Shown here: one piece after another, positions 5,121 through 47,002 of the stretch
Numbering within the stretch: the first letter of the stretch is position 1
Layout: each line of letters starts with the position of its first letter
DNA from: Alphaproteobacteria bacterium
GTDB taxonomy: Bacteria > Pseudomonadota > Alphaproteobacteria > Rickettsiales > JABDBP01
Length of the DNA stretch: 64,000 nt
NCBI GenBank assembly: GCA_013288565.1
Contig: JABDBP010000005.1
Coordinates: forward strand, 8,746 to 72,745
Direction: 5' to 3'
Notes under the pieces: model-generated
What the model was told of the DNA's origin: nothing
The model's input: the letters and a program-made list of their open reading frames with translations, nothing else
Database searches by the model: none
Position numbers and translations under genes: made by a program

Positions 5121-5438
5121 ATGAGGAGAATATTGCCCATTGTGCTGCTTGCCGTTTTGGCCTCCTGCAGCCCCAGAACATCCTGGGTGCCGGACGTAAA
5201 TGGCTGGTTCGCACCGACGCCGATGTTCATGCGCAATATACCCGATGGCAACGACAGCTATAGCGTCGGCTTCCGGGACAGCTGCAACACTTATCTCGGC
5301 ATCATCGGCGTCGGTCCAGAGCAGTTGCACGGCTACCAGATTGATAACAGCAGAGTGCTGGTTGATGCAGCATATAACAAGGGAATGCTGGATGGCCGTT
5401 CCTATTGCACGCACTTCCTCGACCCGGCAATAAACTAA
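5121..5438 (+). CDS. small lipoprotein, divergent first member of the tandem paralog array
   Basis: 105 aa. Signal peptide plus lipobox LASC. Retains two Cys at positions comparable to the paralog motifs (FRDSC.., ..DGRSYC). Confidence 0.55.
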   Translation: MRRILPIVLLAVLASCSPRTSWVPDVNGWFAPTPMFMRNIPDGNDSYSVGFRDSCNTYLGIIGVGPEQLHGYQIDNSRVLVDAAYNKGMLDGRSYCTHFLDPAIN

Positions 5439-5439
5439 T

Positions 5440-5745
5440 ATGAAAAAAATATTCACATTATTAACTTTGGCGGCGGCTATTTCGGGCTGCGATCTGACAA
5501 AACCGGTATATTGGGATTTGACACCGCCGGACGGTCCGCCGGAATACCGCCAGGGCTGGGCCGATGGCTGCGAAAGCGCCAGAGATGCCAACGCCGATCA
5601 TTTCAATAAGGCGTTACTGACGGTCAGGCAGGATGCGGATTTGATGAAAAACCCGGTTTACGAGCGCGTATGGCATGACGCCTATAACTATTGCTGGTAC
5701 ATGCAGGAATCGATCTTGAGCAACGGCTGGGGAAATTATAAATGA
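5440..5745 (+). CDS. small lipoprotein, GWxDGC / WxDAYxYC family (uncharacterised)
   Basis: 101 aa, lipobox ISGC. Motifs QGWADGCES and VWHDAYNYC. Confidence 0.7.
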   Translation: MKKIFTLLTLAAAISGCDLTKPVYWDLTPPDGPPEYRQGWADGCESARDANADHFNKALLTVRQDADLMKNPVYERVWHDAYNYCWYMQESILSNGWGNYK

Positions 5746-6068
5746 CGCGGACACTAATTATGTTGTTCATATTCCTGGCGCTGGTTTCCTGCCGCCCGTA
5801 TCCAGGCCCGCCCTGGCAGGATTGGATGTATGACGGCCCTCCGCCGAGTCCGGATGGCAAGCCCTATCCGGATTTGTATGTACACGGCTGGCAGGATGGC
5901 TGCGAGACCGGCACCGCCGGGCAATCAAACCATTTCTACAAGATGTTCCACGGCTGGCGCCAGGATGCGACGCTGGCGCAGAACAAAGTCTATTACCGTG
6001 GCTGGCAAGACGCTTTCGGTTATTGCAGCCGTTATATTCAACAGTATATGAGCCGGCCGTTCTTTTAA
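5742..6068 (+). CDS. small lipoprotein, GWxDGC / WxDAxxYC family (uncharacterised)
   Basis: 108 aa, lipobox LVSC. Motifs HGWQDGCET and GWQDAFGYC. ATGA overlap with the upstream paralog. Confidence 0.7.
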   Translation: MTRTLIMLFIFLALVSCRPYPGPPWQDWMYDGPPPSPDGKPYPDLYVHGWQDGCETGTAGQSNHFYKMFHGWRQDATLAQNKVYYRGWQDAFGYCSRYIQQYMSRPFF

Positions 6069-6075
6069 GGGCGTT

Positions 6076-6513
6076 ATGAAAAAATATTTAGCACTATTGG
6101 CAATAGTTTTTCTCGCAGGCTGCAACAGTTTTGATTCCGATCTGCCCTACAAGCCCGGATTCATGCCGGAATTGCCGAAAGGCTCGCCGGAATTCACCCA
6201 AGGCTGGAAAGACGGCTGCGCTACCGGTCTTTCCGCCTACGGCAATGATATGTACAAAACCGTCTATCGCTACCGCAAAACCCCGGAATATGAAACCAAC
6301 GCGACATACACCGGCGCCTGGCGCGATGCTTATCAATATTGCCGCCAATACGCCAACACCTGGGACAAACAGGTATTCGCTTCGGGGCATTTCATGCCGT
6401 CCGATCCGGAGGATGCCGAAAATCCGTGGCTAGGACATTCCAAGGATGACGAGGAGCCAATGGACAATTTCCTATCATTGCCAACCGCCGGTGGATTTTT
6501 CGGAACCGATTGA
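6076..6513 (+). CDS. small lipoprotein, GWxDGC / WxDAYxYC family (uncharacterised), extended acidic C-terminus
   Basis: 145 aa, lipobox LAGC. Motifs QGWKDGCAT and AWRDAYQYC. Confidence 0.7.
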   Translation: MKKYLALLAIVFLAGCNSFDSDLPYKPGFMPELPKGSPEFTQGWKDGCATGLSAYGNDMYKTVYRYRKTPEYETNATYTGAWRDAYQYCRQYANTWDKQVFASGHFMPSDPEDAENPWLGHSKDDEEPMDNFLSLPTAGGFFGTD

Positions 6514-6514
6514 T

Positions 6515-6898
6515 ATGAAAAAACTACTACTGCTGACGTTTCTATTCCTCGCCGCCTGCATGCCGGGTTTCCCCCCGGTGATGAACCAAGGCCCGCCAAG
6601 CGATGCGCCAAAGGAGATAAAACAGGGCTGGGACGATGGCTGCCAGACCGGCGTGAATACCTATGGCAACGATATCTATAAAAGTTTCTACGGCTACAAA
6701 ATGGATCCGGCGATGATAAATAATAAGGCCTATTACGAAACCTGGCACGATGCCTATAACTATTGCCGCCACTGGATGAACAGTAACCTGCGCAACGGCT
6801 ATTTCGGCGCCGAATATAGTGATGACCTACGCGATACCCGTACTATCAAGCAGGATGGTGGTGGCGCAGGGCTCGTTCCGCCGTTTTTAGGGTGGTGA
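6515..6898 (+). CDS. small lipoprotein, GWxDGC / WxDAYxYC family (uncharacterised)
   Basis: Internal start MKKLLLLTFLFLAAC (lipobox LAAC), 2 nt after the upstream stop. Motifs QGWDDGCQT and TWHDAYNYC. Confidence 0.7.
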   Translation: MKKLLLLTFLFLAACMPGFPPVMNQGPPSDAPKEIKQGWDDGCQTGVNTYGNDIYKSFYGYKMDPAMINNKAYYETWHDAYNYCRHWMNSNLRNGYFGAEYSDDLRDTRTIKQDGGGAGLVPPFLGW

Positions 6899-6911
6899 TC
6901 TAAAAAGGGGC

Positions 6912-7712
6912 CTAGCTCTTCAATATTTTTCCCTCCTTATTTAACTTCATCGCCTCTTCTAAACTCCCCGGCAGTTTCGGCGATTTATATTGCGGTTCAT
7001 AGGCGTTGCCATAGATTTTTTCCGGCGGATTTATACTATTTGTTATCCCATAATGCGCACCCGCGAGAATCTCTGTGATCGCTGCGAATGGATCGGCATC
7101 AGCGCCGGGAACACGGTGTTCGATATGCCGGTTTTCCGGGGAAGCGGTGCTTTCGGGGATTCTGATCGCCACCGTGCGGTTATTCCCGCCCCAGCAGATT
7201 TTCGTCGGTGCGTTGTCATAGGTTTCACATTCAGAATTATAACCAGCAACGAATCTCTTATAGCTTTCCGCATTCGGCGCAAAATAAACCATCGATTCCG
7301 GCATGGCAGCCAGCAATCCGCCGATTGCATATAACATCTCCAGGGCTTCCTCACCCTCACGCTTGGCAAAAATATTTTTTCCGGAACCATCCAGTAGCGA
7401 TAAATGAATGTGCAACCCACTACCTGGGTGATTTTCATAGGGCTTGGCGGAAAAATCGGCTTTTAGTATTTTTTTTATTTTTACGATGTTTTCCGCAAGT
7501 GCCGTTATGTCCGGGGTCAACGGTAAGGCTATTTCAAATTGGTTCGGCCCCTTTTCCCGCTCGATTTTTATGACGGGAATTTTGTTTGCACCAAGTTTTT
7601 CCTGGATAGTTTCTGGAGTTTCAACATCGGAATAAAACTCCAATTCCGCCGCCATTATGGGAATAAGGACGATGTCGGATTTTATTTTTTTGACTATTTT
7701 TTTTATAACCAT
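6912..7712 (-). CDS. glutamine synthetase catalytic-domain-like protein, unusually short with no N-terminal beta-grasp domain
   Basis: 266 aa. GS motifs AAELEFY, PGSGLHIHLSL, NNRTVAIRIP and HIEHRVPGADADPF. The only sequence upstream is a 117-bp spacer. Confidence 0.6.
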   Translation of the reverse strand: MVIKKIVKKIKSDIVLIPIMAAELEFYSDVETPETIQEKLGANKIPVIKIEREKGPNQFEIALPLTPDITALAENIVKIKKILKADFSAKPYENHPGSGLHIHLSLLDGSGKNIFAKREGEEALEMLYAIGGLLAAMPESMVYFAPNAESYKRFVAGYNSECETYDNAPTKICWGGNNRTVAIRIPESTASPENRHIEHRVPGADADPFAAITEILAGAHYGITNSINPPEKIYGNAYEPQYKSPKLPGSLEEAMKLNKEGKILKS

Positions 7713-7742
7713 AAAACAATTTATATGAGGGGAATTCTAGGA

Positions 7743-7801
7743 GTTTTTAATTTTTAAACCGGAGCGTAGCAGCGCTACGTGAGGACTTAAAAATTAAAAA
7801 C
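7743..7801 (-). terminator. long imperfect palindrome downstream of ilvC (putative terminator)
   Basis: Outer arms tttttaatttttaa / ttaaaaattaaaaa enclose an inner cgtagc-agc-gctacg stem. Lies between the ilvC stop (7830) and the next gene start (7712). Confidence 0.5.
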
Positions 7802-7829
7802 GACGACGAAATCACCCATAGAAATCGTT

Positions 7830-8888
<1,059 letters not shown>

Positions 8889-9454: not shown

Positions 9455-9763
9455 AAATATCAAAAACTTACGATAAGGAGGGGCATGATAATTAACCTGT
9501 TAAAGTAAATCAATTTTTATTTTTTCTTCTAAAATCAACCTGTTGTTAATCCCTTTGGTTTATCAGTGCAATTTCTGCACACACAAGAACATTGGAGAAT
9601 TATAAAATGGTGGGAAATAATCGATAGGCTCCGAACCGAATATTATAGGGATGTCATCCTGGGTTATGCCTGGTTGAAGACTCATCAGTTTGTAGGTATC
9701 TGATTTCCCATCACTCAAATACCGAAAGGGTTCTGCGCTGTGATAGTTGGAATTGGCAAATTC

Positions 9764-11227
9764 ATGGCTATGATAGATAGCATGATGAAGAATGAAAATG
9801 CCCAGACTGGAAATCGTTTGGAAAAAATAATAACAGCCGGGCTCACGCTGCTAGTCTGCCTGGCTCCCTTGCCGCTTGGCAGTAATAACCCGATTAGTTA
9901 TTCAATAATTGCGCTGATGACGGGAATTCTGCTGTTAATGTGGGTTGCCAATTATTTCTTGAGCAAAAAACTACTGGCAATTTCCTTCAAAAAAATATGG
10001 TTTATTGTGCTGCCGTTTTTTCTTGCTGTATCATGGATAATATTGCAAATATCGATACCTGCTCCAGCATCACCAAACCTATGGCTTTTTAATCTTGCTT
10101 CTGCCGCGCTGGCAACTCCGCTTCGGCCAATCATCAGTTTAAACCAGGAGCAAACATTGGATAGCCTAATACGACTCCTGAGTTATGGAGGAATATTCTG
10201 GCTTGCAATGCAAATTGGCCAAACAAAGGGCAATGCAAAGAGGATGTTTAAGGCTGTTACTATTTCAGCCGTTCTTTATGCATTATATGGCCTTATTATG
10301 TATCTTACCAATGCTCCGTATATCGTATGGAGAAAAAAGACCAGTAATTTTGATGTTGTTACCGGAACTTTCATAAATCACAATCACTATGCGACTTACG
10401 CCGGAATTTGTCTGATCGTCACGTGCGCATTGTGGATATCGACCGTCTTAAGGAATTTAGATGACAGCAACGCTAGATTAATTTTGAAGACATTGCTAGA
10501 AAATATAATCCGCAAGGGCTTTATACTTTTTAACATTATAATTATAATCGCCATTTCCCTGATGTTGACCAGTTCGCGCGCCGGGACATTCAGTAGCCTG
10601 TTGGGTTTGATCGCTTTTATTTGTGCTACTGCGCTAACAAAGCCTGTGCAGAATTTGCGTTACGTATTTTTTGGCATAGCCGTGGTAGTTCTATTATCGC
10701 TTTTTGCCGTATTGAATTTCACGGGCAAAGGTGTTTTGAACCGGCTTGCCTATATAGATTATGCAATTAATGATAGGATGCAAATTTATTCTGTCACCTT
10801 GGATGCGATAGCCGATTATAAAACCTACGGCTCCGGATTCGGCACTTTCGAGGAGATTTTTCAAGAATATAGGCCGGAAAGTATGTATAATAGTCGTGAA
10901 ATCCGGATGTGTTATGCTCACAACACTTACCTTGAAACCATACTCGAACTTGGTGCGACGGGATTTGCTGTATTGCTGCTCTGCAATTTAGGAATGTTTT
11001 ATATTTGCTTAGGTGGCTTAAAAAGGCGAACTGGCGGTTATATATACCCGGCAGCCGGCATAGGCATAATGATTCTTGTCGGCGTTCATTCCCTGTTTGA
11101 TTTTAGCATTCAATTACCAGCGGTGGCAGTTACATATTTCGCCCTACTCGGAATTTGCGTAGCGGGTTCATGGTCAAGCAGTGAGGGTACTAGACCTTTA
11201 AGTTTTGCAGCATGGGATATAAAGTGA
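9764..11227 (+). CDS. O-antigen ligase / Wzy_C-domain family membrane protein
   Basis: Polytopic membrane protein with NHNHYATY and LTSSRAGTFSSLLG segments and a large loop ending in H-containing CYAHNTYLE. Confidence 0.7.
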   Translation: MAMIDSMMKNENAQTGNRLEKIITAGLTLLVCLAPLPLGSNNPISYSIIALMTGILLLMWVANYFLSKKLLAISFKKIWFIVLPFFLAVSWIILQISIPAPASPNLWLFNLASAALATPLRPIISLNQEQTLDSLIRLLSYGGIFWLAMQIGQTKGNAKRMFKAVTISAVLYALYGLIMYLTNAPYIVWRKKTSNFDVVTGTFINHNHYATYAGICLIVTCALWISTVLRNLDDSNARLILKTLLENIIRKGFILFNIIIIIAISLMLTSSRAGTFSSLLGLIAFICATALTKPVQNLRYVFFGIAVVVLLSLFAVLNFTGKGVLNRLAYIDYAINDRMQIYSVTLDAIADYKTYGSGFGTFEEIFQEYRPESMYNSREIRMCYAHNTYLETILELGATGFAVLLLCNLGMFYICLGGLKRRTGGYIYPAAGIGIMILVGVHSLFDFSIQLPAVAVTYFALLGICVAGSWSSSEGTRPLSFAAWDIK

Positions 11228-11239
11228 TAATCGTAAGAA

Positions 11240-12739
11240 ATGCTTTTTAATTCTTACCAATTTATTTTTTTATATCTACCTACTGTCTTTCTTGGGTTTT
11301 TCTTTATTTCCAGAATAAGCCGCCACCTTGCCATTCTCTGGTTAGGGGCGGCTTCGCTTTTTTTCTATGGCTGGTGGAACCCAAAATTCGTTCTATTGCT
11401 ACTGGCTTCCATAATTTTTAATTATGGGATGGGGTACGCTATCGGGCATTTGAGAATCGTCTCCAAAGGTAAGGCTCTACTAACGATAGCAATCGGCAGC
11501 AATCTCGCGCTGCTTGGCTATTTCAAATATGCAAATTTTTTCATTAACACGATTGATGGCTTAGCCGATGGAGAAATTCCTCTAACTAATGTTACCCTTC
11601 CACTTGGTATCTCCTTCTTCACTTTTACTCAAATTGCGTTTTTGGTCGATGTCTATCGAGGAATAGCGCATGAGTATCGATTTATTCACTACTTGCTGTT
11701 TGTCAGTTATTTTCCTCACCTGATAGCGGGGCCAATATTACATCATAAACAAATAATTCCCCAATTTGCCGATCCGGTGATATATCAGGTGCGTAGCGAA
11801 AACGTAGCCCTTGGATTAATTATATTTACCATTGGACTTGCCAAAAAAGTTTTATTAGCCGATAGCTTTGCGGAATACGCCAATCCAATTTTCGATGCAA
11901 CGCAGGGTGGCGTGCAGCCCGGCTTAGTCGCGGCCTGGACGGGAGCATTGGCTTATACATTGCAGATTTACTTTGATTTTTCTGGGTATTCCGACATGGC
12001 GATCGGTGCGTCGCACCTGTTTAATATAGAAATACCTATCAATTTCAATTCACCCTATAAATCCAAAAATATTATTGAATTCTGGCGGCGCTGGCACATC
12101 ACGCTATCCCAGTTTCTAAAAGATTACCTTTATATTCCTCTAGGCGGGAACAGACATGGAAAAATCCGCCGCTATGAGAACCTTATAGTTACCATGCTGC
12201 TTGGCGGTTTATGGCATGGCGCTAATTGGACATTCGTAGCTTGGGGGGGATTACATGGTTTTTACCTGCTTATTAACCATGCATGGCATGAATTTCGGAC
12301 GCATATAAGTCTTCCGAGCAAAGAACCATCCTATCTTTCAACAATATTTGGTTCCGCGCTTACCTTTGTCCTTGTTGTTGTGGCATGGGTATTTTTTCGT
12401 GCGGAAAGTTTCCATACTGCTTTTGCGATACTGAAAGGTATGGGCAATATTGGTGAATTTAAGGAACTATACCCAAAAACCCTTTCTATGACTTTTGAGG
12501 GAATATACGACATTTATAAAGTGCCACAGGATAGTGGGGGTTACGTTTTAACCATTTTCTCCTTTGGCCTTGGCATTGTTTGGCTTCTCCAAAATACGCA
12601 AAAATTATCCTCGTATTATCGTTTTTCCGATTATAGAATTCATTTTTTTGTGATTGGAATGCTATGTTTTTGTATATTTATGCTGGTTACAATAAACGCT
12701 TCACGGGGTATTTCGGAATTTATTTATTTCAATTTTTAA
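11240..12739 (+). CDS. MBOAT family O-acyltransferase (AlgI/DltB-like)
   Basis: 499 aa polytopic protein. Motifs FWRRWHITLSQFLKDYLYIPLGGNR and LGGLWHGANW. Confidence 0.85.
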   Translation: MLFNSYQFIFLYLPTVFLGFFFISRISRHLAILWLGAASLFFYGWWNPKFVLLLLASIIFNYGMGYAIGHLRIVSKGKALLTIAIGSNLALLGYFKYANFFINTIDGLADGEIPLTNVTLPLGISFFTFTQIAFLVDVYRGIAHEYRFIHYLLFVSYFPHLIAGPILHHKQIIPQFADPVIYQVRSENVALGLIIFTIGLAKKVLLADSFAEYANPIFDATQGGVQPGLVAAWTGALAYTLQIYFDFSGYSDMAIGASHLFNIEIPINFNSPYKSKNIIEFWRRWHITLSQFLKDYLYIPLGGNRHGKIRRYENLIVTMLLGGLWHGANWTFVAWGGLHGFYLLINHAWHEFRTHISLPSKEPSYLSTIFGSALTFVLVVVAWVFFRAESFHTAFAILKGMGNIGEFKELYPKTLSMTFEGIYDIYKVPQDSGGYVLTIFSFGLGIVWLLQNTQKLSSYYRFSDYRIHFFVIGMLCFCIFMLVTINASRGISEFIYFNF

Positions 12740-12740
12740 G

Positions 12741-13790
12741 ATGAAATTCGCCAAGTATATATTTTTCTTTTTTCTTGGATTAACGGTTTCGATTGTAGTA
12801 TCGGAAGTTGGTTTGCAATTTCTTCCAGTGTCAAAAGGATTTTTTGGCACTAGGCCCACAAAAGAAATGCCTGTAAGTAGATTTATTCCGGATAAATATT
12901 ATACTTATTCTCTGGGGTGGAATTTTAGAGATATTGTTCATGGAAAGTTCAATAACCTCGGTTATATAAGCGATCACGATTATGTGGCAAAAGTTAAAAA
13001 CATAGCTGTTATAGGGAATAGTTATATTGAATCAAGAATGATATGTAATGGTAAGAGTATCAGTGATGACCTTGACAAAATGATGTCACCAAAAGTACAT
13101 GTGTATGCTTTTGGTCAACCAGGAGCCAATTTAGCAGGCTATTTATTGGCCGTTAATTATGCCATTAATACCTTTCACCCGAATTCCCTAATAATACTTA
13201 TAACAAATAAGGATATAGAAAAAAGTCTGAATTACCAACCATGGGGCTTTTGGTTTTCTGAGAAAGAGGGTGGTTTTAAAATAGAAAGCGGTAATACTTC
13301 TGATCTGCCAAATCCAAATTATTATCTTCGTAAATTTCTCCATTCTAGTAGTATTTTCTCCTACTTTCATAATAACTTAAGGTTCAGTAAAGAATTGCTT
13401 GTTGGGGCTGGTAAGATGGTGACTCGATCAGTAGCCCAGCAAGAAATCGGAGAAGTTGTCTTTAACGAGCAATCCCAGAGGGTTGGTGAATTTTTTATCA
13501 AATCACTTGTAGAGATTCATCACAAAACCGGATCGGAGATAATTTTGGTATTCGATGGGGATAGGAAAAGTATATATGAAGAAAAAGCCCCGAATAGATC
13601 GGAGGTTGATTTCCTAATGAATTTAGCAAAAAATAATAATATTAAGACGATTGATTTGCAAAAATACTTTGAGTTGGATTACTCGGTATTCAGAAAACCT
13701 TTTGACTATGAAAGGTTTGACGGTCACTGGAATGAGCGCGGCCATGCAGTTGCCGCCGCCGCTATATTTGATATTGTGAAAGGACTTTAA
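12741..13790 (+). CDS. SGNH / AlgX-AlgJ-like protein, probable partner of the MBOAT acyltransferase
   Basis: N-terminal TM anchor. Motifs AVIGNSYIES and C-terminal FDGHWNERGH. Starts 2 nt after the MBOAT stop. Confidence 0.55.
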   Translation: MKFAKYIFFFFLGLTVSIVVSEVGLQFLPVSKGFFGTRPTKEMPVSRFIPDKYYTYSLGWNFRDIVHGKFNNLGYISDHDYVAKVKNIAVIGNSYIESRMICNGKSISDDLDKMMSPKVHVYAFGQPGANLAGYLLAVNYAINTFHPNSLIILITNKDIEKSLNYQPWGFWFSEKEGGFKIESGNTSDLPNPNYYLRKFLHSSSIFSYFHNNLRFSKELLVGAGKMVTRSVAQQEIGEVVFNEQSQRVGEFFIKSLVEIHHKTGSEIILVFDGDRKSIYEEKAPNRSEVDFLMNLAKNNNIKTIDLQKYFELDYSVFRKPFDYERFDGHWNERGHAVAAAAIFDIVKGL

Positions 13791-13890
13791 CGAGAGCATT
13801 ACGCTAAAAATCAATAGGGGCATCATTGGGGACATCCATCAACTGCTGGTGATACAAAAATGCTTGTTGTCAATTAGTTACCCGCTTAGT

Positions 13891-14571
13891 ATGGCTGCCG
13901 TCACCGTGGTTAATCAAACAAAAAACAATCCTGTAACAAAAGCCGTGGTCGCTGGTGTATTGATTCCGGCGATTTTTCTGATTGTTTACGGCAGCTTATT
14001 ACTGCGTCAGGAAATAAAAAGGCTGCCGGTCATTGCAGCGGTGGAAAAAATTAATCTCAGCAAGCCTGTAAGCCCAGAAGAGCTGTCCGCTGCCATAAAA
14101 ACTGCAGTTGGCCTGATAAAAGAACGGAGAAGCAGTGAAATTCTAGCTGATCTAGCATTGCTTGAAATGGCACAAGCAGCTAACACTGCAAAAAATCAAG
14201 GTGAATCAGGGAAATATTTTCAGGATGCCAGGGTACACCTGACAGAAAGCCTATCACTCGCGCCTGCCAATCCTTTCGGATGGGCGAGGCTTGCTTATAT
14301 TGACATCAGCTTAAATTCAGCATCAGAGAAAACCGCAAAAGAATTATATCTTTCGGCAATGACCGGGCCTTATCTTCCGAACCTACTGTTGCCGAGGCTG
14401 GAAATGGCTTTGGCGTCGTGGCGATATTTTAATGAAGCCGGAAAGGCCTTATTCCGGGAACAAATCAGAGCCGCTTGGCGCAAGGAGCCTATGAAAGTAC
14501 TGGATTTGTCCAGAAAAGATGGATTCTATCCGATCATAATAGATGCGGTAAGGGAAGGGTCGGCTAGGTAG
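13891..14571 (+). CDS. hypothetical membrane-anchored helical-repeat protein
   Basis: One TM segment (VVAGVLIPAIFLIVYGSLLL) followed by a helical, TPR-like region. Start uncertain (GTG 13849 or ATG 13891). Confidence 0.4.
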   Translation: MAAVTVVNQTKNNPVTKAVVAGVLIPAIFLIVYGSLLLRQEIKRLPVIAAVEKINLSKPVSPEELSAAIKTAVGLIKERRSSEILADLALLEMAQAANTAKNQGESGKYFQDARVHLTESLSLAPANPFGWARLAYIDISLNSASEKTAKELYLSAMTGPYLPNLLLPRLEMALASWRYFNEAGKALFREQIRAAWRKEPMKVLDLSRKDGFYPIIIDAVREGSAR

Positions 14572-14597
14572 CATTTGCCCTTAAGACATCCAGGTTG

Positions 14598-14723
14598 TTA
14601 TCTGGTCGATAAAAACTTCATTATTTGACCTTGCAGCACTACGTCGTTTCCGGTGGCATAGCTTCTGGTATCGATTCCTATATCGCCCTTGTTGTCCCCT
14701 ATAATATTTCTTTGAAATATAGC
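14598..14723 (-). pseudogene. 3' fragment of a second metallophosphoesterase gene, paralogous to the 3' end of 18816-19577
   Basis: Translates to ..AIFQRNIIGDNKGDIGIDTRSYATGNDVVLQGQIMKFLSTR*. The intact gene reads ..TIFDKPFIGNGRIGIDTGSFATGKLTAVMLQGKVMKFLSTRE*. Stops close the frame upstream. Confidence 0.7.
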
Positions 14724-14765
14724 AGGTTACTATTAATTTTGATGTAATTGATATTGCGTTTTAGA

Positions 14766-15971
14766 ATGAATAATTCATATAACTCATTTGTGGCTCAATT
14801 TCTTAAAAATGCAGTACTTATCCTTGCAAGTATTTTTGTATCGCTGGCAATATGTGAAATCACGCTAAGGGTAATGCATTTTTCGGCACCGTTATTTTAT
14901 AAACCAGATCCTGAGGTTGGCGCGGTTCTGCGCCCTGGCGCTGCTGGCCTTCAAAAAATGGAGGGCGAGACTTATATTACCATCAACTCACAAGGGCTAC
15001 GCGACTATGAGCATTCGTCGGTTAAATCTGAAAATTCTATTCGGATAGCTGTACTTGGCGACTCCTATGCAGAAGCATTGCAAGTACCTATTGATAAAAC
15101 ATTCTGGAGTATTGCAAAGGATACTTTTGACAATCAATGTCCCAGCAACCAGAAAAAGCTGGAACCAATCAATTTGGGCGTTTCCGGATATGGAACCGCA
15201 CAGGAATTTATAAGGCTTCGCCGTGACGCATGGCAATATAACCCAGATATAGTGCTATTAGCTGTCACAGTAGGAAATGATATAAGAAATAATAGTAAAG
15301 AATTAGAGCCAGATAAAGCCAGGCCATTTCTAAATAAGGATAACACTTTCGATTTTTCTTATATTCATTCTCACATGAACACTTCGGGTTATAAGCTAAA
15401 AAACTCATGGATTGGAAGAATGGCAACTGAAGCCTCTAATCACCTACGCATAATACAGCTAGTATATTATTCAATAGATTTATACCTTTATAGAAATGCG
15501 CTATCTTTAACTTCTAAATCTACAAGCGAAGTAGGCATTGATGATTTTATATACCATCCTCCGCAAACGGATGCTGAAAAGGAAGCCTGGAATACCACAG
15601 AGAGGTTGCTTCTGATGATGAAGAAGGAAGTTGAGGGAAAAGGAAAGAAACTATTGGTAGTCACGCTCTCCTCAGGGATCCAAGTATCTCTTGATCGAGT
15701 AAAATATGAACAATTTAAACAATCATTCGAGAGGCAATATAAAACTCCATTCGAGCCTTTCTATCCAGACTATAGAATTAAGGCATTTCTGGAGAAAAAT
15801 AACATCAATTATCTAATTCTGGCACCGCAATTGCAAAGAACTGCGGTGGAAAAGAACATATATATGCATGGGTTTGGGAATAATCTTGGCGGCGGCCACT
15901 GGAATGAGAATGGACATCGCTATGCTGGTGAGATCATCGCAAACAAGCTATGCGGTATGTTATCCCAATAA
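14766..15971 (+). CDS. SGNH/GDSL-type hydrolase or acyltransferase-like protein, membrane anchored
   Basis: N-terminal TM. SGNH blocks AVLGDSYAEA, GVSGYG, VGNDIRNN and GGGHWNENGH. Confidence 0.6.
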   Translation: MNNSYNSFVAQFLKNAVLILASIFVSLAICEITLRVMHFSAPLFYKPDPEVGAVLRPGAAGLQKMEGETYITINSQGLRDYEHSSVKSENSIRIAVLGDSYAEALQVPIDKTFWSIAKDTFDNQCPSNQKKLEPINLGVSGYGTAQEFIRLRRDAWQYNPDIVLLAVTVGNDIRNNSKELEPDKARPFLNKDNTFDFSYIHSHMNTSGYKLKNSWIGRMATEASNHLRIIQLVYYSIDLYLYRNALSLTSKSTSEVGIDDFIYHPPQTDAEKEAWNTTERLLLMMKKEVEGKGKKLLVVTLSSGIQVSLDRVKYEQFKQSFERQYKTPFEPFYPDYRIKAFLEKNNINYLILAPQLQRTAVEKNIYMHGFGNNLGGGHWNENGHRYAGEIIANKLCGMLSQ

Positions 15972-16113
15972 TTCTGAAGAGGCTGAACTGCAGCAACTCA
16001 ATCACTATAGGCCAGATACTTACCCCTGTTAAACATCTTCAACAATTTTGTTTGCCAATAGAGAGGGGTAAAGAGAGTATAGTGTAAATTCCTATTTTGG
16101 CGGCGATTATTAA

Positions 16114-16551
16114 ATGAAATCAGAAATCAAGAGCAAAGTCATCAACCTGGCCTATTCCGAAGATGTTAAAATGCCTTCGGATAAGAAGTTCGGGCTAACG
16201 ATTGGTATTATTTTTCTTCTTATTTCCACTTTTCTTTATCTACATCATAAACATGCATCTTGGTATTTAATATCAGCTGCCGCAATTGTAATTACAGTAG
16301 TGCTAGTTTGTTCCAAGGCGCTGCATCCGCTAAACTGGACTTGGTTTAAAATCGGGATGTTGGTAAGTAAAATTACCAATCCTATTATTTTTGCCGGTAT
16401 GTTTTATGTTCTGATAACTCCGGCCGGACTAATCATGCGGGTTTTTGGAAAAAGGCCAATAACAAACAGTGTTTCAAAAAAAATAAGTAGTTACTGGATT
16501 GAAAGAAAAAATAATAATTTCAATATGGAAACGTTTAAGAACCAGTTTTGA
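16114..16551 (+). CDS. SxtJ-family small membrane protein
   Basis: 145 aa with three hydrophobic segments. Sits in the recurrent SxtJ / DUF5989 / carbamoyltransferase neighbourhood (from memory). Confidence 0.5.
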   Translation: MKSEIKSKVINLAYSEDVKMPSDKKFGLTIGIIFLLISTFLYLHHKHASWYLISAAAIVITVVLVCSKALHPLNWTWFKIGMLVSKITNPIIFAGMFYVLITPAGLIMRVFGKRPITNSVSKKISSYWIERKNNNFNMETFKNQF

Positions 16552-16555
16552 ATTT

Positions 16556-16708
16556 ATGCTCAGTATTCTTGCAGAATTATGGCGGTTTCTAAAAGTGCGT
16601 AAGAAATATTGGCTTATGCCGATATTGTTCGTGCTAATATTGTTTGGGACGTTAATTATCCTCGCGCAAGGTAGTGTCCTTGCACCCTTTATCTACACTC
16701 TTTTTTAG
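16556..16708 (+). CDS. DUF5989-like small membrane protein
   Basis: About 50 aa: MLSILAELWRFLKVRKKYWLMPILFVLILFGTLIIL. Lies directly upstream of the carbamoyltransferase. Confidence 0.5.
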   Translation: MLSILAELWRFLKVRKKYWLMPILFVLILFGTLIILAQGSVLAPFIYTLF

Positions 16709-16712
16709 CTTC

Positions 16713-18548
16713 GTGACCAGAATCCTAGGAATCTCGGCATTTTATCACGATAGCGCGGCGGCTCTTGTAAAAGATGGAATAATAATTGCGGCAGCACAGG
16801 AAGAAAGATTTAATAGAAAAAAGCATTACGCCGGTTTTCCCTATTCGGCCATTTCTTATTGCCTAGAAAAAGATAATATCAGCCTAAAAGATATTGATTA
16901 TGTGGTATTCTATGAGAAGCCTTTCCTAACTTTTGAAAGACTCCTGGAAACTTACCTTTCCTTCGCTCCGCGCGGTCTGATTTCTTTCGTTAAATCCATG
17001 CCCTTATGGATTAAGCATAAATTGTTTCAAAAGGAAATAATAAGGAAATCGCTGGTTAGTATTTCAGAAAACAAACAGATTCCTGAAATACTTTTTAGCG
17101 AGCATCACTTATCACACGCATCAAGCGCATTTTACCCTTCCCCATTTTCTAAGGCACTGATTCTTACGCTTGATGGGGTGGGAGAGTGGGCAACCACAAG
17201 CGTCGCTTTGGGCAATGAATCTAAAATTGAAATTAAGAAAGAGATATTCTTTCCGCATTCCATAGGCCTGCTCTATTCGAGCTTTACTTATTTTCTGGGA
17301 TTAAAGGTTAATTCAGGTGAGTATAAACTGATGGGACTCGCTCCCTATGGAGAGCCTAAATATGCCGATATTATTCTGGAGCATTTAATAGACTTAAAAG
17401 AAGATGGCTCCTACCGGCTCAACATGGGATATTTTGATTATTGTACCGGCTTAAAAATGACCAATAAGAAGTTCGAGAAACTTTTTGGTATTCCGCCCAG
17501 GAAGCCAGAAGAACTTCTAACCGAAAAGCACATGGATATTGCTGCCTCGATACAATTAGTAACCGAGAAAGTACTGCTTACCATGACCGATGTCTTGGCA
17601 AAAGAATTTCCGGAATATAAGAACTTATGCCTTGCTGGTGGCGTTGCGCTTAACTGCGTAGCTAATGGGAAAATATTGAAACAAGGGAATTTCAATAATA
17701 TTTGGATTCAGCCTGCGTCAGGCGATGCCGGTGGGGCTGTAGGGTCGGCGCTTGCTGCTTATCATCTGGCTCTTGGTAAACAACGCCAAGTTCAGGAAAA
17801 TGATGGTATGCAGGGCGGGTATCTTGGGCAGGAATATTCACAAGTAGAAATAGAATCCGAGTTGGATGCAACTGGAGCTAAATTCACAGTAATGGAAGAG
17901 GCAGAACTTTTGCAAAAAACTACTGAAGCATTAATTCAAGGTAAGGCCGTAGGATGGTTTCAAGGTAGAGCCGAATTTGGGCCAAGAGCGCTGGGGAATC
18001 GTTCAATTCTGGGAGATCCGACCAATAAAACTATGCAGAAAGACTTGAACCTGAAAGTCAAATTCCGTGAATCATTCCGGCCATTCGCCCCGGCAGTGCT
18101 TGAGGAGGATGTCTCCGAATGGTTTGATATGGACGTTGCAAGTCCATATATGCTGTTAGTATGCGAAGTGGCAAAGAAGCGCCAGGTGACAATGAAAGAA
18201 GAAGATAAGAAACTATTTGGCATAGATAAACTTAATGTTGCAAGGTCGGCAATACCATCTGTTACGCACGTTGATTACTCTGCCAGGGTGCAAACCGTTT
18301 CAAAAACAACTAATCCAAAATTCCATGCTCTTATTAGCGTCTTTAAGGAGAAAACCGGCTGCGGGGTTCTGGTAAATACAAGTTTTAATGTTCGCGGGGA
18401 GCCAATAGTAAATTCTCCAGGAGATGCCTTCCGTTGCTTTATGGGAACAGGAATTGAGACGCTTGTGATAGGGAATTGCTTTCTTGAGAAGGAAAAACAG
18501 GAGATAAGTTTGATAGAAGATTATAAGCATAAATTCGAGCTTGATTGA
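16713..18548 (+). CDS. carbamoyltransferase (NodU/CmcH family)
   Basis: Probable GTG start giving VTRILGISAFYHDSAAALV. YrdC/Kae1-like body and carbamoyltransferase C-terminal domain (NTSFNVRGEPIV). Confidence 0.9.
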   Translation: MTRILGISAFYHDSAAALVKDGIIIAAAQEERFNRKKHYAGFPYSAISYCLEKDNISLKDIDYVVFYEKPFLTFERLLETYLSFAPRGLISFVKSMPLWIKHKLFQKEIIRKSLVSISENKQIPEILFSEHHLSHASSAFYPSPFSKALILTLDGVGEWATTSVALGNESKIEIKKEIFFPHSIGLLYSSFTYFLGLKVNSGEYKLMGLAPYGEPKYADIILEHLIDLKEDGSYRLNMGYFDYCTGLKMTNKKFEKLFGIPPRKPEELLTEKHMDIAASIQLVTEKVLLTMTDVLAKEFPEYKNLCLAGGVALNCVANGKILKQGNFNNIWIQPASGDAGGAVGSALAAYHLALGKQRQVQENDGMQGGYLGQEYSQVEIESELDATGAKFTVMEEAELLQKTTEALIQGKAVGWFQGRAEFGPRALGNRSILGDPTNKTMQKDLNLKVKFRESFRPFAPAVLEEDVSEWFDMDVASPYMLLVCEVAKKRQVTMKEEDKKLFGIDKLNVARSAIPSVTHVDYSARVQTVSKTTNPKFHALISVFKEKTGCGVLVNTSFNVRGEPIVNSPGDAFRCFMGTGIETLVIGNCFLEKEKQEISLIEDYKHKFELD

Positions 18549-18769
18549 TGAGTGTCTCTGCCTCAAAGAGATATCAAAGATTCCTTCGACTAGTGATCAA
18601 AGCAAGAAAAGAGGCGGGCATAAGTCAACAGGAACTTGCCAATATGCTGAATAAGCCTCAATCCTTCATCTCAGAATATGAGTTAGGCAAGAAAAGCCTG
18701 AATGTGCAAGAATTTGCTGCAATCACCAGGAATCTAAAGATAAGTGCTGATGCGCTTATCAATCGTTAA
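18545..18769 (+). CDS. XRE-family helix-turn-helix protein
   Basis: 74 aa with HTH ISQQELANMLNKPQSFISEYELG. ATG overlaps the carbamoyltransferase stop (ATGA). Confidence 0.7.
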   Translation: MMSVSASKRYQRFLRLVIKARKEAGISQQELANMLNKPQSFISEYELGKKSLNVQEFAAITRNLKISADALINR

Positions 18770-18815
18770 AGAGATAATGTTATTCGGCAGTATATTGATT
18801 TGCTAAGTTAACCAG

Positions 18816-19577
18816 CTACTCCCTGGTCGATAAAAATTTCATTACTTTACCTTGCAACATTACGGCGGTGAGCTTTCCGGTGGCAAAGCTTCCGGTATCG
18901 ATTCCTATCCTCCCGTTCCCGATAAATGGCTTATCGAATATAGTATGGCCAAATACTATGGTTTTGCCGAAATCCTTGCGTGAATAAATGAATTCATCGC
19001 GGATCATCAGCATATCCGCCCCTGATTGCTGATCTAGCGGGATACCCGGGCGGAAACCGGCATGCACGAAAACATAATCTCCTTCCTCGTGCATCATTTT
19101 CAGCTCGGAAAAGAATTTTTTGTGGTGTTCCGGAATACAACTTTCTAGCTCCTTTGCGATTTTTTCCAGATCCGCTTGATTCAGCATATTAACATCCAGC
19201 TTTACCCCATAGCTCTGAATCGTAGCTTCACCTCCCCATAAAAACCATTGTTCGCTTCTTTCCGGCCCCTCTATGAACTCCAGCATCGCATGCTCGTGAT
19301 TTCCTTTTAGGAAAATTCTCTCAAAACCCGGCAGCGGAGAGGTAATTAGGTGTTCAATAACTTGTTTGGATTCTAACCTGCGGTCAACATAATCCCCAAG
19401 ATAAACCAGGACTTTTCGGGCTTCCGGATTAAAATTTTTCTCTTCCTTTAGGATTATTTCATGCAGGGAGAGTAATGGCTCCAGATTACCGTGGATATCA
19501 CCTATTGCGTAGATTCTGGTGTTTTCTGGAGTATTGTGGGGAATTTCCGGCTTAGTGAAAAGCTTATTAATCAGCAT
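18816..19577 (-). CDS. PPP-family metallophosphoesterase (PrpA/ApaH-like protein phosphatase)
   Basis: Motifs GDIHGN, GDYVDR, GNHE, VHAG and GHT. Start trimmed to MLINK because the longer ORF overlaps the upstream kinase gene. Confidence 0.8.
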   Translation of the reverse strand: MLINKLFTKPEIPHNTPENTRIYAIGDIHGNLEPLLSLHEIILKEEKNFNPEARKVLVYLGDYVDRRLESKQVIEHLITSPLPGFERIFLKGNHEHAMLEFIEGPERSEQWFLWGGEATIQSYGVKLDVNMLNQADLEKIAKELESCIPEHHKKFFSELKMMHEEGDYVFVHAGFRPGIPLDQQSGADMLMIRDEFIYSRKDFGKTIVFGHTIFDKPFIGNGRIGIDTGSFATGKLTAVMLQGKVMKFLSTRE

Positions 19578-19584
19578 TTGTAGC

Positions 19585-21771
19585 CTAACCAGCTTTGGCG
19601 CGACGGTAGTATTCCTTATAATAGCCATGATAATAACCACTATCCGCCGCGCCGTAATATTTGTGTTTGCTGAAATCCACCCTGGTAAGTACAGCCCCGG
19701 CGATTGGTGCATTGGCATCTTTCAACTGTTGCAGGGCAGCCATGACTATTCCTTGTGGAGTTACACCCCAACGCACCACGAAAAGGCAGGTATCAACCGT
19801 GCTGGAAAAGATCAAAGCATCTGAAATAGCCATTAGCGGCGCAGTATCAAAAATTATATAATCATAGCGACTGGATAGATAATCCATAAGGCGCTGCATT
19901 TTCTTCGAAGAAAGCAAATCTTGAGAATTTTCTATATTGCACCGTGCTGGTATGAAATCCGGGCCGCCTGTTTCAGCCTTAAGGATGATTTCTTCTTCCG
20001 TGACAGTAGAGTCAGTTAGGAAATCGCTTAAATCATACTGGAAACTTTCCCCGACCAGGCTTTCGCTTAGGGAGGCACGTTTCAGATCAGTATCTACGAG
20101 TATGGTTTTTTTCCCCGAGTTGGCAAGTATACTTGCTAGCGAGTGTGAGAAGAACGATTTTCCTTCATCGGGGATTGACGACGTTACCATTATTGTTTTT
20201 AGCAGGCGTTCTGTTCTAGGAAAATGTATAGAAGCGATAACCGCACGGATCGATTCATAATATATCGAAGATGAGCCCTCGGTTTCTTTTCCTTTCATCT
20301 CAGGCAGCATCGCTAACACACGAAGCCCGGTTCTTTCCCTAAGCTGCTGCGCCTGGCGGAACGAATGATCAAGGCTTTCTATAAGGAATGCCGTGATGAC
20401 TCCAAGCAAAATGCCTAAAACCAGGGCTATCAGGAAAAATAACTGTGGGTTGGGGTAAGAAGGTCCCACCGGCGTTTCGGCTTTAGAAATTATGCGTGCA
20501 TCGGCCTGCTCCGTTCCTTTGCTTTCTGAAGTTTGCTTAAATCTGGTAAGAAAGGATTCATATAATGTCCTGTTTGCATTCATCTCCCTTGTAAGTTCAG
20601 AGAGTTGCACCGAAGCACGGCTTGAATCTCCGGTTTTTTCTTTCAGATGTTCCAAGCTGTTTGTTAGTGCCTCTTCCCGGCTCTTTGCCACCTCCACTTC
20701 ATTCTGTAAGCTTTCGGTAATCTTGCCGATTTCAGCCCTTATCTTTTGATTAAGATCGGTTATTTCGGCGTTTATGTTGATCATTTTCGGGTGTTTTGGC
20801 CCATAACGATTGCTTAAGTCTGCCTTTTTTCTCAACAACTCGGTTTCCTGTCCACGCAACTGCTGAATAAGACCTGAGTTCAATACTTCCGGGCTTGAGT
20901 CGATTGAGATGCGTGAGTTACTTAGCTTGGCTTCAGCCTTGGCTCTTTCGGCATGCGCCGTGACCAGCTGGGTATTGATTTCGGAAAGCTGTTGATCGGT
21001 TATGGTGACCCCGCTGGCATTCTCCAGTAGGTTATTCTGCTCGCGGAAGTTCTGCACTTTTACTTCCGATTCATGCACGTTTTTCTCCAGCTCCACCAGC
21101 CTTTCGCTCAACCATTGATTGGCCTGTTCAGTGGCTTCGAATTTCCGAGCAAGCTGGCTGTTTATATATTCTTCGGCAATAGCGTTAACTATGTCTCTCG
21201 TCTTTTGCGGGAAGTGGGAAGAAAATTTCACGGTTATAGTGTAAGAATGCGGCCTCCTCACAACCACCAAGCGGTCAAGGTACTGGTTAATTACCTTGGT
21301 GCTTATTCCGCTTTTATCGTCTTTCGTATCTTTTCTCTGGTGCTCTTGTCCGAAGTAATTCATCACGCTAGAAGACAATCCGGCAAAAAATTTTTCCTTG
21401 GAAAGGCCGCCGTTGAACTCTGGATCATTCTCAAGGCCAAGTTTCTCTATAACCTTGGAGGCAAGGGATCGCGATTCTAAAATATCCAGTTCGCTTACTA
21501 TCGCGGAATCATCGGCGGAAATTGAAGATGTCACTGATTCTATATTGATTACTTTATTGGCAGGGATATTTATCTGCAGCACCGAGCTCGCAGTATAGAG
21601 CCTAGGCGTTACCGAGAGAAAAATTGCGGTCAGAACTAAAACAAAGAATATAATGCTGAAGATAGTGTATATATTACGCCTGAGCAGCATCGCTATTTCT
21701 TTGATGCTTAGATCAAAATTTTGCGATACAGCAGGCATCTGATTGTTATTTTCCTGAAATGTACCGCTCAT
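19585..21771 (-). CDS. polysaccharide co-polymerase / tyrosine autokinase (Wzc/ExoP family)
   Basis: 728 aa. Wzz-like N-terminal domain with a coiled coil, second TM, P-loop SSIPDEGKS, Walker B YDYIIFDTAPL, and a Tyr-rich tail KYYGAADSGYYHGYYKEYY. Confidence 0.85.
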   Translation of the reverse strand: MSGTFQENNNQMPAVSQNFDLSIKEIAMLLRRNIYTIFSIIFFVLVLTAIFLSVTPRLYTASSVLQINIPANKVINIESVTSSISADDSAIVSELDILESRSLASKVIEKLGLENDPEFNGGLSKEKFFAGLSSSVMNYFGQEHQRKDTKDDKSGISTKVINQYLDRLVVVRRPHSYTITVKFSSHFPQKTRDIVNAIAEEYINSQLARKFEATEQANQWLSERLVELEKNVHESEVKVQNFREQNNLLENASGVTITDQQLSEINTQLVTAHAERAKAEAKLSNSRISIDSSPEVLNSGLIQQLRGQETELLRKKADLSNRYGPKHPKMININAEITDLNQKIRAEIGKITESLQNEVEVAKSREEALTNSLEHLKEKTGDSSRASVQLSELTREMNANRTLYESFLTRFKQTSESKGTEQADARIISKAETPVGPSYPNPQLFFLIALVLGILLGVITAFLIESLDHSFRQAQQLRERTGLRVLAMLPEMKGKETEGSSSIYYESIRAVIASIHFPRTERLLKTIMVTSSIPDEGKSFFSHSLASILANSGKKTILVDTDLKRASLSESLVGESFQYDLSDFLTDSTVTEEEIILKAETGGPDFIPARCNIENSQDLLSSKKMQRLMDYLSSRYDYIIFDTAPLMAISDALIFSSTVDTCLFVVRWGVTPQGIVMAALQQLKDANAPIAGAVLTRVDFSKHKYYGAADSGYYHGYYKEYYRRAKAG

Positions 21772-21796
21772 CTAATTCCACACCGCATGAATAGCA

Positions 21797-22369
21797 TTAA
21801 AAAAATCTCTCAAGCACCCTGACAGTATCGCCAGCATAAACCGGAGTATCGTCCTGGCCTTTTTCTTCAACCTTCTCGCCATTTTTTTCACGGGTTATAA
21901 TGACTTCATTGGTTTTTGCCCGTTGCGTGTAACCCCCGGCTAACGCCACCGCATTTAAAACAGTCAAGCCGTTTACGTAAGGATAGCTGCCGGGTTTATT
22001 GACCTCCCCCAATATAAAAAATGGCCTGAAATTCAATACGTCAACACTAACCCGGGGATTCACCAGATAATCGCCTTTCAAGGCATCAACTACTTTCTTT
22101 TCTAATGCCCGGGAATCTAATCCGGCAGCTTTGACACTTCCTATAAACGGCAGGGAAACATAGCCTGAACCATCGATATCGAATTGGCCGGAAAGATCAT
22201 CCTCACCAAATACCGTCAGCTTGATTTTATCACCAGCCCCGAGCTTGTAACCACTGTTGCTGATGTTATTTTCGGCAATAGTAGCTTCTTGTGCTGCTAC
22301 AGACGAAACTCCTGCATAAAAAGCACAAAGGAAAAGGAGAACAGTGAAGAATACACGCATTCGACGCAA
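21797..22369 (-). CDS. polysaccharide export protein (Wza/ExoF-type, short form)
   Basis: 190 aa with a signal peptide. Poly_export motif YKLGAGDKIKLTVFGEDDLSG..DGSGYVSLPFIG followed by an SLBB-like segment. Confidence 0.8.
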   Translation of the reverse strand: MRRMRVFFTVLLFLCAFYAGVSSVAAQEATIAENNISNSGYKLGAGDKIKLTVFGEDDLSGQFDIDGSGYVSLPFIGSVKAAGLDSRALEKKVVDALKGDYLVNPRVSVDVLNFRPFFILGEVNKPGSYPYVNGLTVLNAVALAGGYTQRAKTNEVIITREKNGEKVEEKGQDDTPVYAGDTVRVLERFF

Positions 22370-22389
22370 TTATAGCCTAAAAACCCAGC

Positions 22390-35031: not shown

Positions 35032-35108
35032 TGGTGGGAACGAGAGGATTCGAACCTCCGACCTAGCGATTAGGAATCGCTCGCTCTATCCAACTGAGCT
35101 ACGTCCCC
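35032..35108 (-). tRNA. tRNA-Arg (anticodon CCU)
   Basis: Hand-folded 77-nt cloverleaf. Acceptor GGGGACG/CGTTCCC, anticodon stem AGCGA/TCGCT, loop TTCCTAA, T-loop GGTTCGAAT, encoded CCA. Confidence 0.9.
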
Positions 35109-41725: not shown

Positions 41726-41802
41726 GGGCGGTTAGCTCAGTTGGTTAGAGCGCTACGTTGACATCGTAGAGGTCGTTGGTTCGAGCCCAATACCGCCCAC
41801 CA
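41726..41802 (+). tRNA. tRNA-Val (anticodon GAC)
   Basis: Hand-folded 77-nt cloverleaf. Acceptor GGGCGGT/ACCGCCC, anticodon stem CTACG/CGTAG, loop TTGACAT, T-loop GGTTCGAGC, encoded CCA. Confidence 0.9.
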
Positions 41803-46831: not shown

Positions 46832-47002
46832 ATTTCCTCCAAATTTGTTAACCACGAGAAACAGTATAGCACTTGTTACCCCTTTGCACCTCAAAAAAAA
46901 GCATTTTTCGACGAAATAGTCGCAATAATTCGCATAAAATTTTAAGTAGTGGCTTATTTACACATGTGTATAAAATATGTATAAATATTTCGCCACTGAG
47001 AT

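Follow-up and report, generated by a model that had tools for sequence, protein, structure and literature searches.

The question raised by this locus is why five small lipoproteins of one family should be encoded side by side in a single bacterial genome, and whether they act together or separately. The locus lies in a stretch of 64,000 nucleotides (called here the window) from contig JABDBP010000005.1 of an alphaproteobacterium placed in the Rickettsiales (assembly GCA_013288565.1, positions 8,746 to 72,745), and its five genes are referred to below as the cassette. The answer proposed here, which we regard as an even proposition, is that their products are non-redundant and make up, as five subunits, a single hetero-oligomeric complex of the envelope, lipid-anchored and periplasmic. 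The genes, and the sequence that follows them, are these:

5121–5438, plus strand: paralog 1, 105 residues, the divergent position-1 subunit; lipobox LASC; motifs VGFRDSC...DGRSYC; short C-terminus CTHFLDPAIN, typical of position 1.
5440–5745, plus strand: paralog 2, 101 residues; lipobox ISGC with Asp at +2; tether PPDGPPEY; motifs QGWADGCES...WHDAYNYC; C-terminal GWGNYK.
5742–6068, plus strand: paralog 3, 108 residues; lipobox LVSC; motifs HGWQDGCET...WQDAFGYC; C-terminal SRPFF.
6076–6513, plus strand: paralog 4, 145 residues; lipobox LAGC; motifs QGWKDGCAT...WRDAYQYC; acidic tail of about 45 residues with low predicted order, C-terminal FFGTD.
6515–6898, plus strand: paralog 5, 127 residues; lipobox LAAC; motifs QGWDDGCQT...WHDAYNYC; flexible tail, C-terminal PPFLGW.
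6906–6935, plus strand: weak terminator-like hairpin and T-run (consensus scan only), just 3' of paralog 5 and ahead of a convergent Gln-synt_C gene.

An earlier note on this DNA had described five packed plus-strand genes for proteins of 101–145 residues, with anything from a 4-nt overlap to 7-nt gaps between them. The open reading frames and the raw sequence bear this out, the spacings from paralog 1 to paralog 5 being +1, −4 (an ATGA overlap of genes 2 and 3), +7 and +1 nt. Paralog 5 has an alternative upstream ATG at 6446, and the MKKLLLL start at 6515 agrees with its orthologs P0001 and P0006, the latter 80% identical to it. Orthologs of paralog 2 are P0005, P0007 and P0009. The hairpin is weak evidence of a terminator, because such sites are no commoner in the region than in shuffled sequence.

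In alignment, all five translations begin with an n-region containing K or R, followed by a hydrophobic h-region and then the lipobox, which confirms the signal peptide and lipobox that had been assigned to every member. With a strict lipobox filter, 34–36 of 42 orthologs at each of the five positions carry one. The Pfam model LPAM_1 matches the five proteins below its threshold (11–17.5 bits, cut-off 20). Two further signals were considered for paralog 2 and discarded. The Asp at +2, a candidate Lol-avoidance signal, is not kept among position-2 orthologs and therefore allows no inference about localisation; the C-terminal GNYK was considered as a lysine tether like that of Braun lipoprotein, yet most orthologs end in Arg.

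Outside the lipobox, the five paralogous lipoproteins of this operon-like array do share two conserved cysteines, as the earlier note had observed. In the first motif the invariant residues are G, D and C; in the second they are Y, D, Y and C. The pattern QGW(A/Q/K/D)DGC...W(H/Q/R)DA(Y/F)xYC proposed for members 2–5 is recovered by alignment, except that member 3 has H and not Q at the first position. The paralogs of the window are only 24–40% identical to one another, and their tails are divergent. Paralog 1 had been described as a divergent copy that keeps the two cysteines, and this holds: it matches the family hidden Markov model (HMM) at E = 1e-6, and a profile of position-1 orthologs aligns with the profile of members 2–5 at an hhalign probability of 99.4% (E = 1.1e-21). 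On these profile comparisons, member 1 is a genuine divergent paralog and its likeness goes beyond a mere match of cysteines.

Two helix motifs mark the family as a whole, G-[WFYM]-x-D-G-C and, at a distance of about 41 residues, W-x-[DEN]-[AG]-[YF]-x-[YF]-C, and the window cassette shows every feature of it, namely the lipobox, the two helix motifs, the same-strand array of five domains and the divergent copy in first place. In one member elsewhere, P0195 (298 residues), the two conserved helices (GWQHGCESG...WKDSFNFCRHY) are separated by a Tyr-, Arg- and Lys-rich insertion of about 100 residues, and therefore the inter-helix loop tolerates large insertions.

The mature domains of the five window proteins have no match in Pfam, NCBIfam or PADLOC. 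When 141 diverse family members were scanned singly against Pfam and NCBIfam, they matched lipoprotein signal-peptide models only, and the family profile run against all PDB chains gave only signal-peptide matches to unrelated lipoproteins. Foldseek found no neighbour in PDB for the single-domain model described below, or in PDB and BFVD for a fusion model (best E values 4.3, 3.5 and 2.4). In their source records all family members are named hypothetical protein and none has a precomputed Pfam domain, and no description of such a family or cassette turned up in literature searches. The suggestion that the motif is not that of a described family is thus sustained. The HMM search that the earlier note had advised, run with HMMER exhaustively against 1.84 billion cluster representatives, returned many homologues: 584 with E ≤ 1e-3, of which 257 reach E ≤ 1e-10. 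The 584 are clusters at 50% identity, all from metagenome-assembled genomes (MAGs) and metagenomes and mostly labelled Rickettsiales. Among one genome per GTDB species, 57 loci were found, all in MAGs, 41 of them labelled within the Rickettsiales and the others Alphaproteobacteria or similar; a metagenome scan added 54 loci and no new context type. Tandem arrays of the family are found in both sets, and a sequence pattern repeated on this scale is far beyond chance.

The number of domains in these arrays is almost fixed. A six-frame scan of each of 60 loci, the window among them, with the family HMM found a single same-strand array of exactly five domains in 47 and more than five domains in none. 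Loci with fewer than five are mostly at contig ends, and in one MAG the set is split over two loci, L017 with two domains and L031 with three. All metagenome contigs of sufficient length show the five-member pattern.

The order is conserved as well. When the five paralogs of one locus were assigned to the five of another, the colinear assignment was the optimal one for 51% of locus pairs (438 of 861), where 1 in 120 would be expected at random (5 × 5 assignment). Best matches between loci are mostly at the same position, so that the matrix is dominated by its diagonal. Paralog 1 finds its best match in the position-1 ortholog in 36 of 41 loci, position 1 nearly always pairing with position 1, and paralog 3 in the position-3 ortholog, again in 36 of 41. 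The C-termini are also conserved by position: CT[YF]xxDxDx at position 1, ...RxF[FL] at position 3, and longer tails with aromatic, Gly or Trp ends at positions 4 and 5. Given that the five-domain count, the orthologous order and the position-specific C-termini recur across diverged loci, the comparison of sequences indicates that the five-fold duplication predates the divergence of these lineages, and that the set is ancient and ordered.

Some genomes contain two separate cassettes: L030/L033 (contig JBEVNR010000016.1, about 19 kb apart), L035/L037, L022/L036 and L024/L026. These paired-cassette genomes have up to two complete five-domain arrays, which implies either duplication of whole cassettes or two ancient cassette types. 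The best assignment of L030 to the window is cyclically shifted (2,3,4,5,1).

Selection on the five genes is of the ordinary purifying kind. Relative to the closest relative, L004 (about 80% amino-acid identity), the ratio of nonsynonymous to synonymous substitution rates (dN/dS) is 0.18, 0.17, 0.17, 0.16 and 0.11 for paralogs 1 to 5, which is in the range of the flanking thiL (0.135), nusB (0.163) and Gln-synt_C gene (0.175); ribBA and ilvC have 0.044 and 0.057. Copy number was likewise checked in close relatives, as the earlier note had advised, and is constant, the window, L004 and L005 all having five.

That the paralogs work together is supported by fusions between them. L034, L038 and L040 keep the five domains with only four genes: paralogs 2 and 3 are joined in one lipoprotein with a single signal peptide. 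In the window, it is likewise genes 2 and 3 that overlap, by ATGA. An alignment search for this 2+3 fusion found about 21 clusters at 90% identity, of 200–239 residues, with both halves covered and identity down to 46%; because they have diverged so far, the fusion is inherited stably throughout a clade and is no artefact of assembly. The fused-clade loci L117 and L118 encode a protein of 107 residues, the fusion, and proteins of about 160 and about 150 residues. A separate fusion resembling 4+5 (P0019) occurs in the Tad-linked clade described below.

Structures were predicted using AlphaFold2. For paralog 4 (53-sequence alignment), the core at residues of about 31–100 has a predicted local distance difference test (pLDDT) of 88–97, and the tail 54–61. 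The core is predicted to be all-helical (H38–55, H58–63 and H76–102). The conserved C48 and C89 sit on the two long helices, H38–55 and H76–102, and helix 1 presents a G-x3-G-x3-G face made up of G43, G47 and G51 (GWxDGCxxG). The model suggests that the domain is probably an all-helical unit of about 70 residues stapled by a disulfide. The disulfide-stabilised periplasmic domain proposed in the earlier note is consistent with this placement of the cysteines, while the bond itself, like the tight packing of the helices, is something we infer. The 2+3 fusion P0198 (64-sequence alignment) is predicted with a mean pLDDT of 82.7, both domains above 90, and a predicted template-modelling score (pTM) of 0.78. 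Since a 225-residue chain with a signal peptide and a low-confidence linker could not otherwise reach this score, the model supports a defined interface between domains 2 and 3 in the fusion.

Drawing on these observations, we hypothesise the following for the five-subunit complex. After export by Sec and lipidation of its lipobox Cys, each subunit would be held in the periplasm by a short Pro-rich tether (PPxGPPEY) bearing the helical domain. The two long helices would be locked by the Cys-Cys pair, and the G-x3-G-x3-G face would permit close packing. The paralogs may have arisen once, before the present lineages split, and been kept as an ordered 1-2-3-4-5 cassette, whose products would assemble side by side into a hetero-oligomeric membrane-anchored complex. 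The flexible tails of paralogs 4 and 5, with their aromatic, Gly or Trp ends, may dock onto a partner. The best lead to such a partner is a type IV filament machine, either Tad or the type IV pilus, and it comes from the genomic context.

The context of the cassette is clade-specific, with roughly 25 context types. In the window clade, ribBA-ribH-nusB-thiL lie upstream, and a gene encoding only a Gln-synt_C domain and ilvC are convergent downstream. Other neighbours tested are also housekeeping genes (panC, secF, gcvP, CNNM, an RND efflux system, hisS and others). In a clade of four species (L001/L016, L003, L021 and L028), the cassette instead shares its strand with rcpC-secretin-cpaD-tadZ-tadA-tadB-tadC(-selO) and follows these genes at gaps of 36–125 nt, in the place after tadC that tadD-E-F-G usually have. 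No Flp pilin or prepilin peptidase gene was found within 800 nt upstream of rcpC in L016. The SelO gene (protein adenylyltransferase type) overlaps the end of tadC in these loci (about 7100–8500, locus coordinates); in L001 it has decayed to a C-terminal fragment of 180 residues, and the five lipoprotein genes there are intact.

In a distant clade, one of two genes precedes the cassette and is translationally coupled to it. One encodes a GT4 glycosyltransferase, overlaps the first cassette gene by 3–7 nt and is preceded by an EptA-like gene. The product of the other, about 300 residues long, combines a LamG-like domain with a prepilin leader of class III (KKAFSLVELSMV...). Genes with a prepilin leader and a LamG/ConA-like domain (about 250–300 residues) are:

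L043, 8364–9284: prepilin-leader and LamG/ConA-like gene.
L046, 1727–2536: the same type of gene.
L049, 2232–3095: the same type of gene.
L056, 1739–2629: the same type of gene.
L057, 8361–9254: the same type of gene.
L034, 7657–8421: the same type of gene.

The prepilin-type gene lies 0–13 nt upstream of the cassette in the first five of these loci and 97 nt upstream in L034, and L043, L057 and L034 have a second prepilin-leader paralog several kb from the cassette. Using a regular expression for prepilin leaders, two pilin-like genes were found within 1.3 kb of the L023 cassette, convergent downstream of it. In L019, a PilT/PilU-like ATPase pair is convergent directly downstream. The window itself encodes a prepilin-type protein of 275 residues (46067–46894, minus strand) with the leader ERGFTLVELSIVLVIIGL and a Pfam N_methyl match of 33.6 bits, above the cut-off; the long pilin-like genes next to the cassette in other lineages resemble it.

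These juxtapositions suggest an explanation that is compatible with the five-subunit complex but more specific: the cassette may be a dedicated accessory of the Tad or type IVa pilus, its products being pilotin- or ring-like lipoproteins that assemble, anchor or gate the secretin. We put this forward tentatively, as an explanation that is possible rather than likely. The tadD-E-F-G slot and the same-strand Tad operon upstream in four species speak for it, as do the class-III prepilin-leader genes that adjoin the cassette in five species and in L034 and L023, the PilT/PilU-like pair, and the presence of a prepilin-type protein in the window genome. By a rough estimate, about five filament juxtapositions in about 25 context types exceed chance, which is a lead and not a result. 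Basal Rickettsiales have also been reported to have type IV pili and Tad pili (PMC9352585). However, no Tad or secretin homolog was found in the 64 kb of the window or beside most other cassettes, and the linkages that do exist differ in the class of filament (Tad, FSLVEL-type pilins, PilT). No pilus-assembly genes adjoin the prepilin-type gene of the window. A further step, also doubtful, would be that a lineage-specific, essential-like five-subunit assembly of the Rickettsiales envelope, with a new disulfide-stapled helical fold, is the missing outer-membrane or periplasmic accessory, pilotin- or ring-like, of their Tad or type IV pilus machines. If this were true, it would be a new class of type IV filament component, made of paralogous lipoproteins instead of pilins or tetratricopeptide-repeat pilotins.

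Comparison with known pilotins bears directly on this. The secretin pilotins (PulS/OutS/GspS/AspS and TadD/CpaI) are, like the cassette proteins, small periplasmic lipoproteins, and those of the PulS class are all-helical and contain a disulfide. Their genes lie within secretin operons or beside them, and the cassette directly follows the Tad secretin/ATPase operon in four species, at the usual place of tadD. However, pilotins are single genes, whereas the cassette is a set of five paralogs mostly not near a secretin, and there is no match to a pilotin model in Pfam or NCBIfam and none by Foldseek to a pilotin in PDB (best E 4.3 and 3.5). More widely, no likeness in sequence or fold to PulS/OutS, TadD, RcpB, CpaD or PilP was found. 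The minor pilins and pseudopilins (GspG-H-I-J-K; FimU-PilV-W-X-E) are a fixed set of about five small paralogs in an ordered operon, non-redundant and assembled into one hetero-oligomer, and by analogy are the nearest parallel to the logic of the 1-2-3-4-5 cassette. The resemblance stops there: pilins have a class-III prepilin leader, an N-terminal transmembrane helix and a β-sheet head, whereas the cassette proteins have a lipobox and an all-helical domain and no homology to them. The class-III leader (G/A-F-T/S-L-I/V-E) or N-terminal methylation motif is present in none of the five window proteins.

Several of these observations weigh against the five-subunit complex, and some also against a filament partner. 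Most contexts, including that of the window, consist of unrelated housekeeping genes. Each type IV filament linkage is limited to a single clade, so that independent events number about five at most. Adjacency in the Tad clade is no guarantee of shared function, because a SelO of cytoplasmic type stands between tadC and the cassette. Five loci (L039, L050, L026, L017 and L031) have only one to three members although they are away from contig ends. Finally, the packing of domain 2 against domain 3 is deduced from pTM and from nothing else.

A link to type IV secretion was considered and rejected. Two contigs of the fused clade carry a gene for a TrbL/VirB6 protein of 989 residues and a CagX/VirB9 gene, which we take to belong to the rvh type IV secretion system, large VirB6 paralogs being typical of this system in the Rickettsiales. 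With the VirB6/TrbL protein of L117 as query, the other loci scanned gave no homolog, and no type IV secretion gene recurs beside the cassette in them.

Another explanation is that the five are independent periplasmic binding or protective lipoproteins, acting on glycan, peptidoglycan or lipopolysaccharide or inhibiting hydrolases, with five ligands and not one complex. We consider this, too, possible rather than likely, and it has points in its favour. Trp, Tyr, Asp, Asn and Arg are abundant in the conserved core, which may on that account resemble a carbohydrate-binding surface. In the distant clade, a GT4 glycosyltransferase gene overlaps the first cassette gene and an EptA-like transferase gene stands before it; in the window, an exopolysaccharide cluster begins 2.8 kb away; and the tails are position-specific and differ between paralogs. 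Yet no match to a known glycan-binding or inhibitor family was found, and obligate co-function is favoured over independent activities because the five-domain count is kept strictly through fusion, the order is conserved and the pTM of the fused pair is high. If the proteins do prove to be independent binders, they will still be a new and well-delimited lipoprotein family, of narrower interest.

The earlier note had itself proposed a local five-fold amplification under diversifying pressure, of the kind seen for surface or host-interaction lipoproteins. The low identity between paralogs, their divergent tails, and the labelling of the organisms as Rickettsiales, a largely host-associated order, would suit a recent event of this sort, but it is largely refuted and very improbable now. 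Position orthologs stand in the same order across deeply diverged loci, 47 of 60 of which have five domains and none more; copy number does not vary between the window, L004 and L005; and dN/dS of 0.11–0.18 equals that of housekeeping neighbours. No observation made on the cassette suggests exposure at the surface or interaction with a host. Least probable of all is an immunity, defence or toxin-antidote array, of which tandem small paralogous periplasmic lipoproteins are typical as a matter of general knowledge, but for which there is no PADLOC match and no toxin, type VI secretion or contact-dependent inhibition gene conserved beside the arrays, the fixed number and order and the purifying selection being the opposite of what an arms-race array would show.

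Two other groups of proteins resemble the proposed five-subunit complex in part. BamB-E, LptE/LptM and VirB7/TrbH are small lipoproteins sorted by Lol that are stoichiometric subunits of envelope complexes, and in VirB7 a conserved Cys forms a disulfide to its partner; but these are mutually unrelated, whereas the cassette members are paralogs. Models for LptM, LvhB7, VirB7 and TrbH match the cassette proteins only in the signal peptide and far below their cut-offs (for LvhB7, VirB7 and TrbH, residues 1–19, E 0.03–1). The mitochondrial CHCH twin-CX9C proteins and the Sel1-like repeats of the Helicobacter Hcp proteins have a helix-turn-helix locked by a Cys on each helix in an oxidising compartment. 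The cassette differs in having a single Cys pair about 41 residues apart, with no CHCH or Sel1 match in Pfam and no Foldseek similarity. Because the comparisons by sequence model, fold, prepilin leader and type IV secretion linkage all failed, with a generic lipoprotein signal as the sole exception, the family is filed as new. As judged from these comparisons, the family and its five-gene architecture are new, and not a member or variant of the systems compared.

The family and its predicted fold are absent from Pfam, NCBIfam and PDB; the motifs give a clear signature by which a new domain family could be defined as a DUF-type entry, and the cassette a marker for these lineages. If the five-subunit complex is real, an order-level lineage of uncultured Rickettsiales-like Alphaproteobacteria has a conserved five-subunit envelope complex, and the survival of the five-domain rule through gene fusion would be an unusually plain sign, at the level of the genome, of obligate hetero-oligomer stoichiometry. 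Within the lineage some forms have the rvh type IV secretion system and some have Tad and type IV pili. The cassette would then be a candidate envelope or type IV filament accessory in bacteria near the transition from free-living to host-associated life.

The remaining features of the window are listed here.

6912–7712, minus strand: Gln-synt_C-only protein, 266 residues, profile positions 74–310, with no N-terminal domain; in the same place in L004 (268 residues).
9740–23652, both strands: exopolysaccharide or capsule-type cluster, which includes the next seven entries.
9740–11227: Wzy_C protein, O-antigen-ligase-like.
11240–12739: MBOAT protein.
12741–15971, plus strand: three open reading frames that have no Pfam match.
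16674–18548: carbamoyltransferase.
19585–21771, minus strand: Wzc-like chain-length/tyrosine-kinase protein.
21797–22369, minus strand: Poly_export/SLBB protein, Wza-like.
22390–23652, minus strand: BBP2_2 β-barrel porin.
35035–35108, minus strand, and 41726–41799, plus strand: two tRNA genes, the only Rfam matches of the window above the gathering score.
47003 to about 58400, minus strand: RcGTA-like gene-transfer-agent or prophage tail cluster, probably running to the end of the window.
50374–54051: GTA_TIM/Phage-tail_3/Rcc01698_C protein, 1225 residues, within that cluster.

Four open reading frames, of 475, 349, 240 and 407 residues (42092–43519, minus strand; 12741–15971, plus strand), have no Pfam match at E ≤ 1e-3. 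The product of 6912–7712 is probably a functional short enzyme resembling glutamine synthetase and not that of a pseudogene, given the dN/dS of 0.175 noted above. The RcGTA-like cluster also contains a phage lysozyme, DUF2793, Gp84_N with BR0599, DUF2460, a tail tube protein and a head-tail connector. Together with these genes and the exopolysaccharide cluster, the cox/SURF1, ilv, thr, rib and thi genes that the window also carries indicate a metabolically fairly complete alphaproteobacterium.

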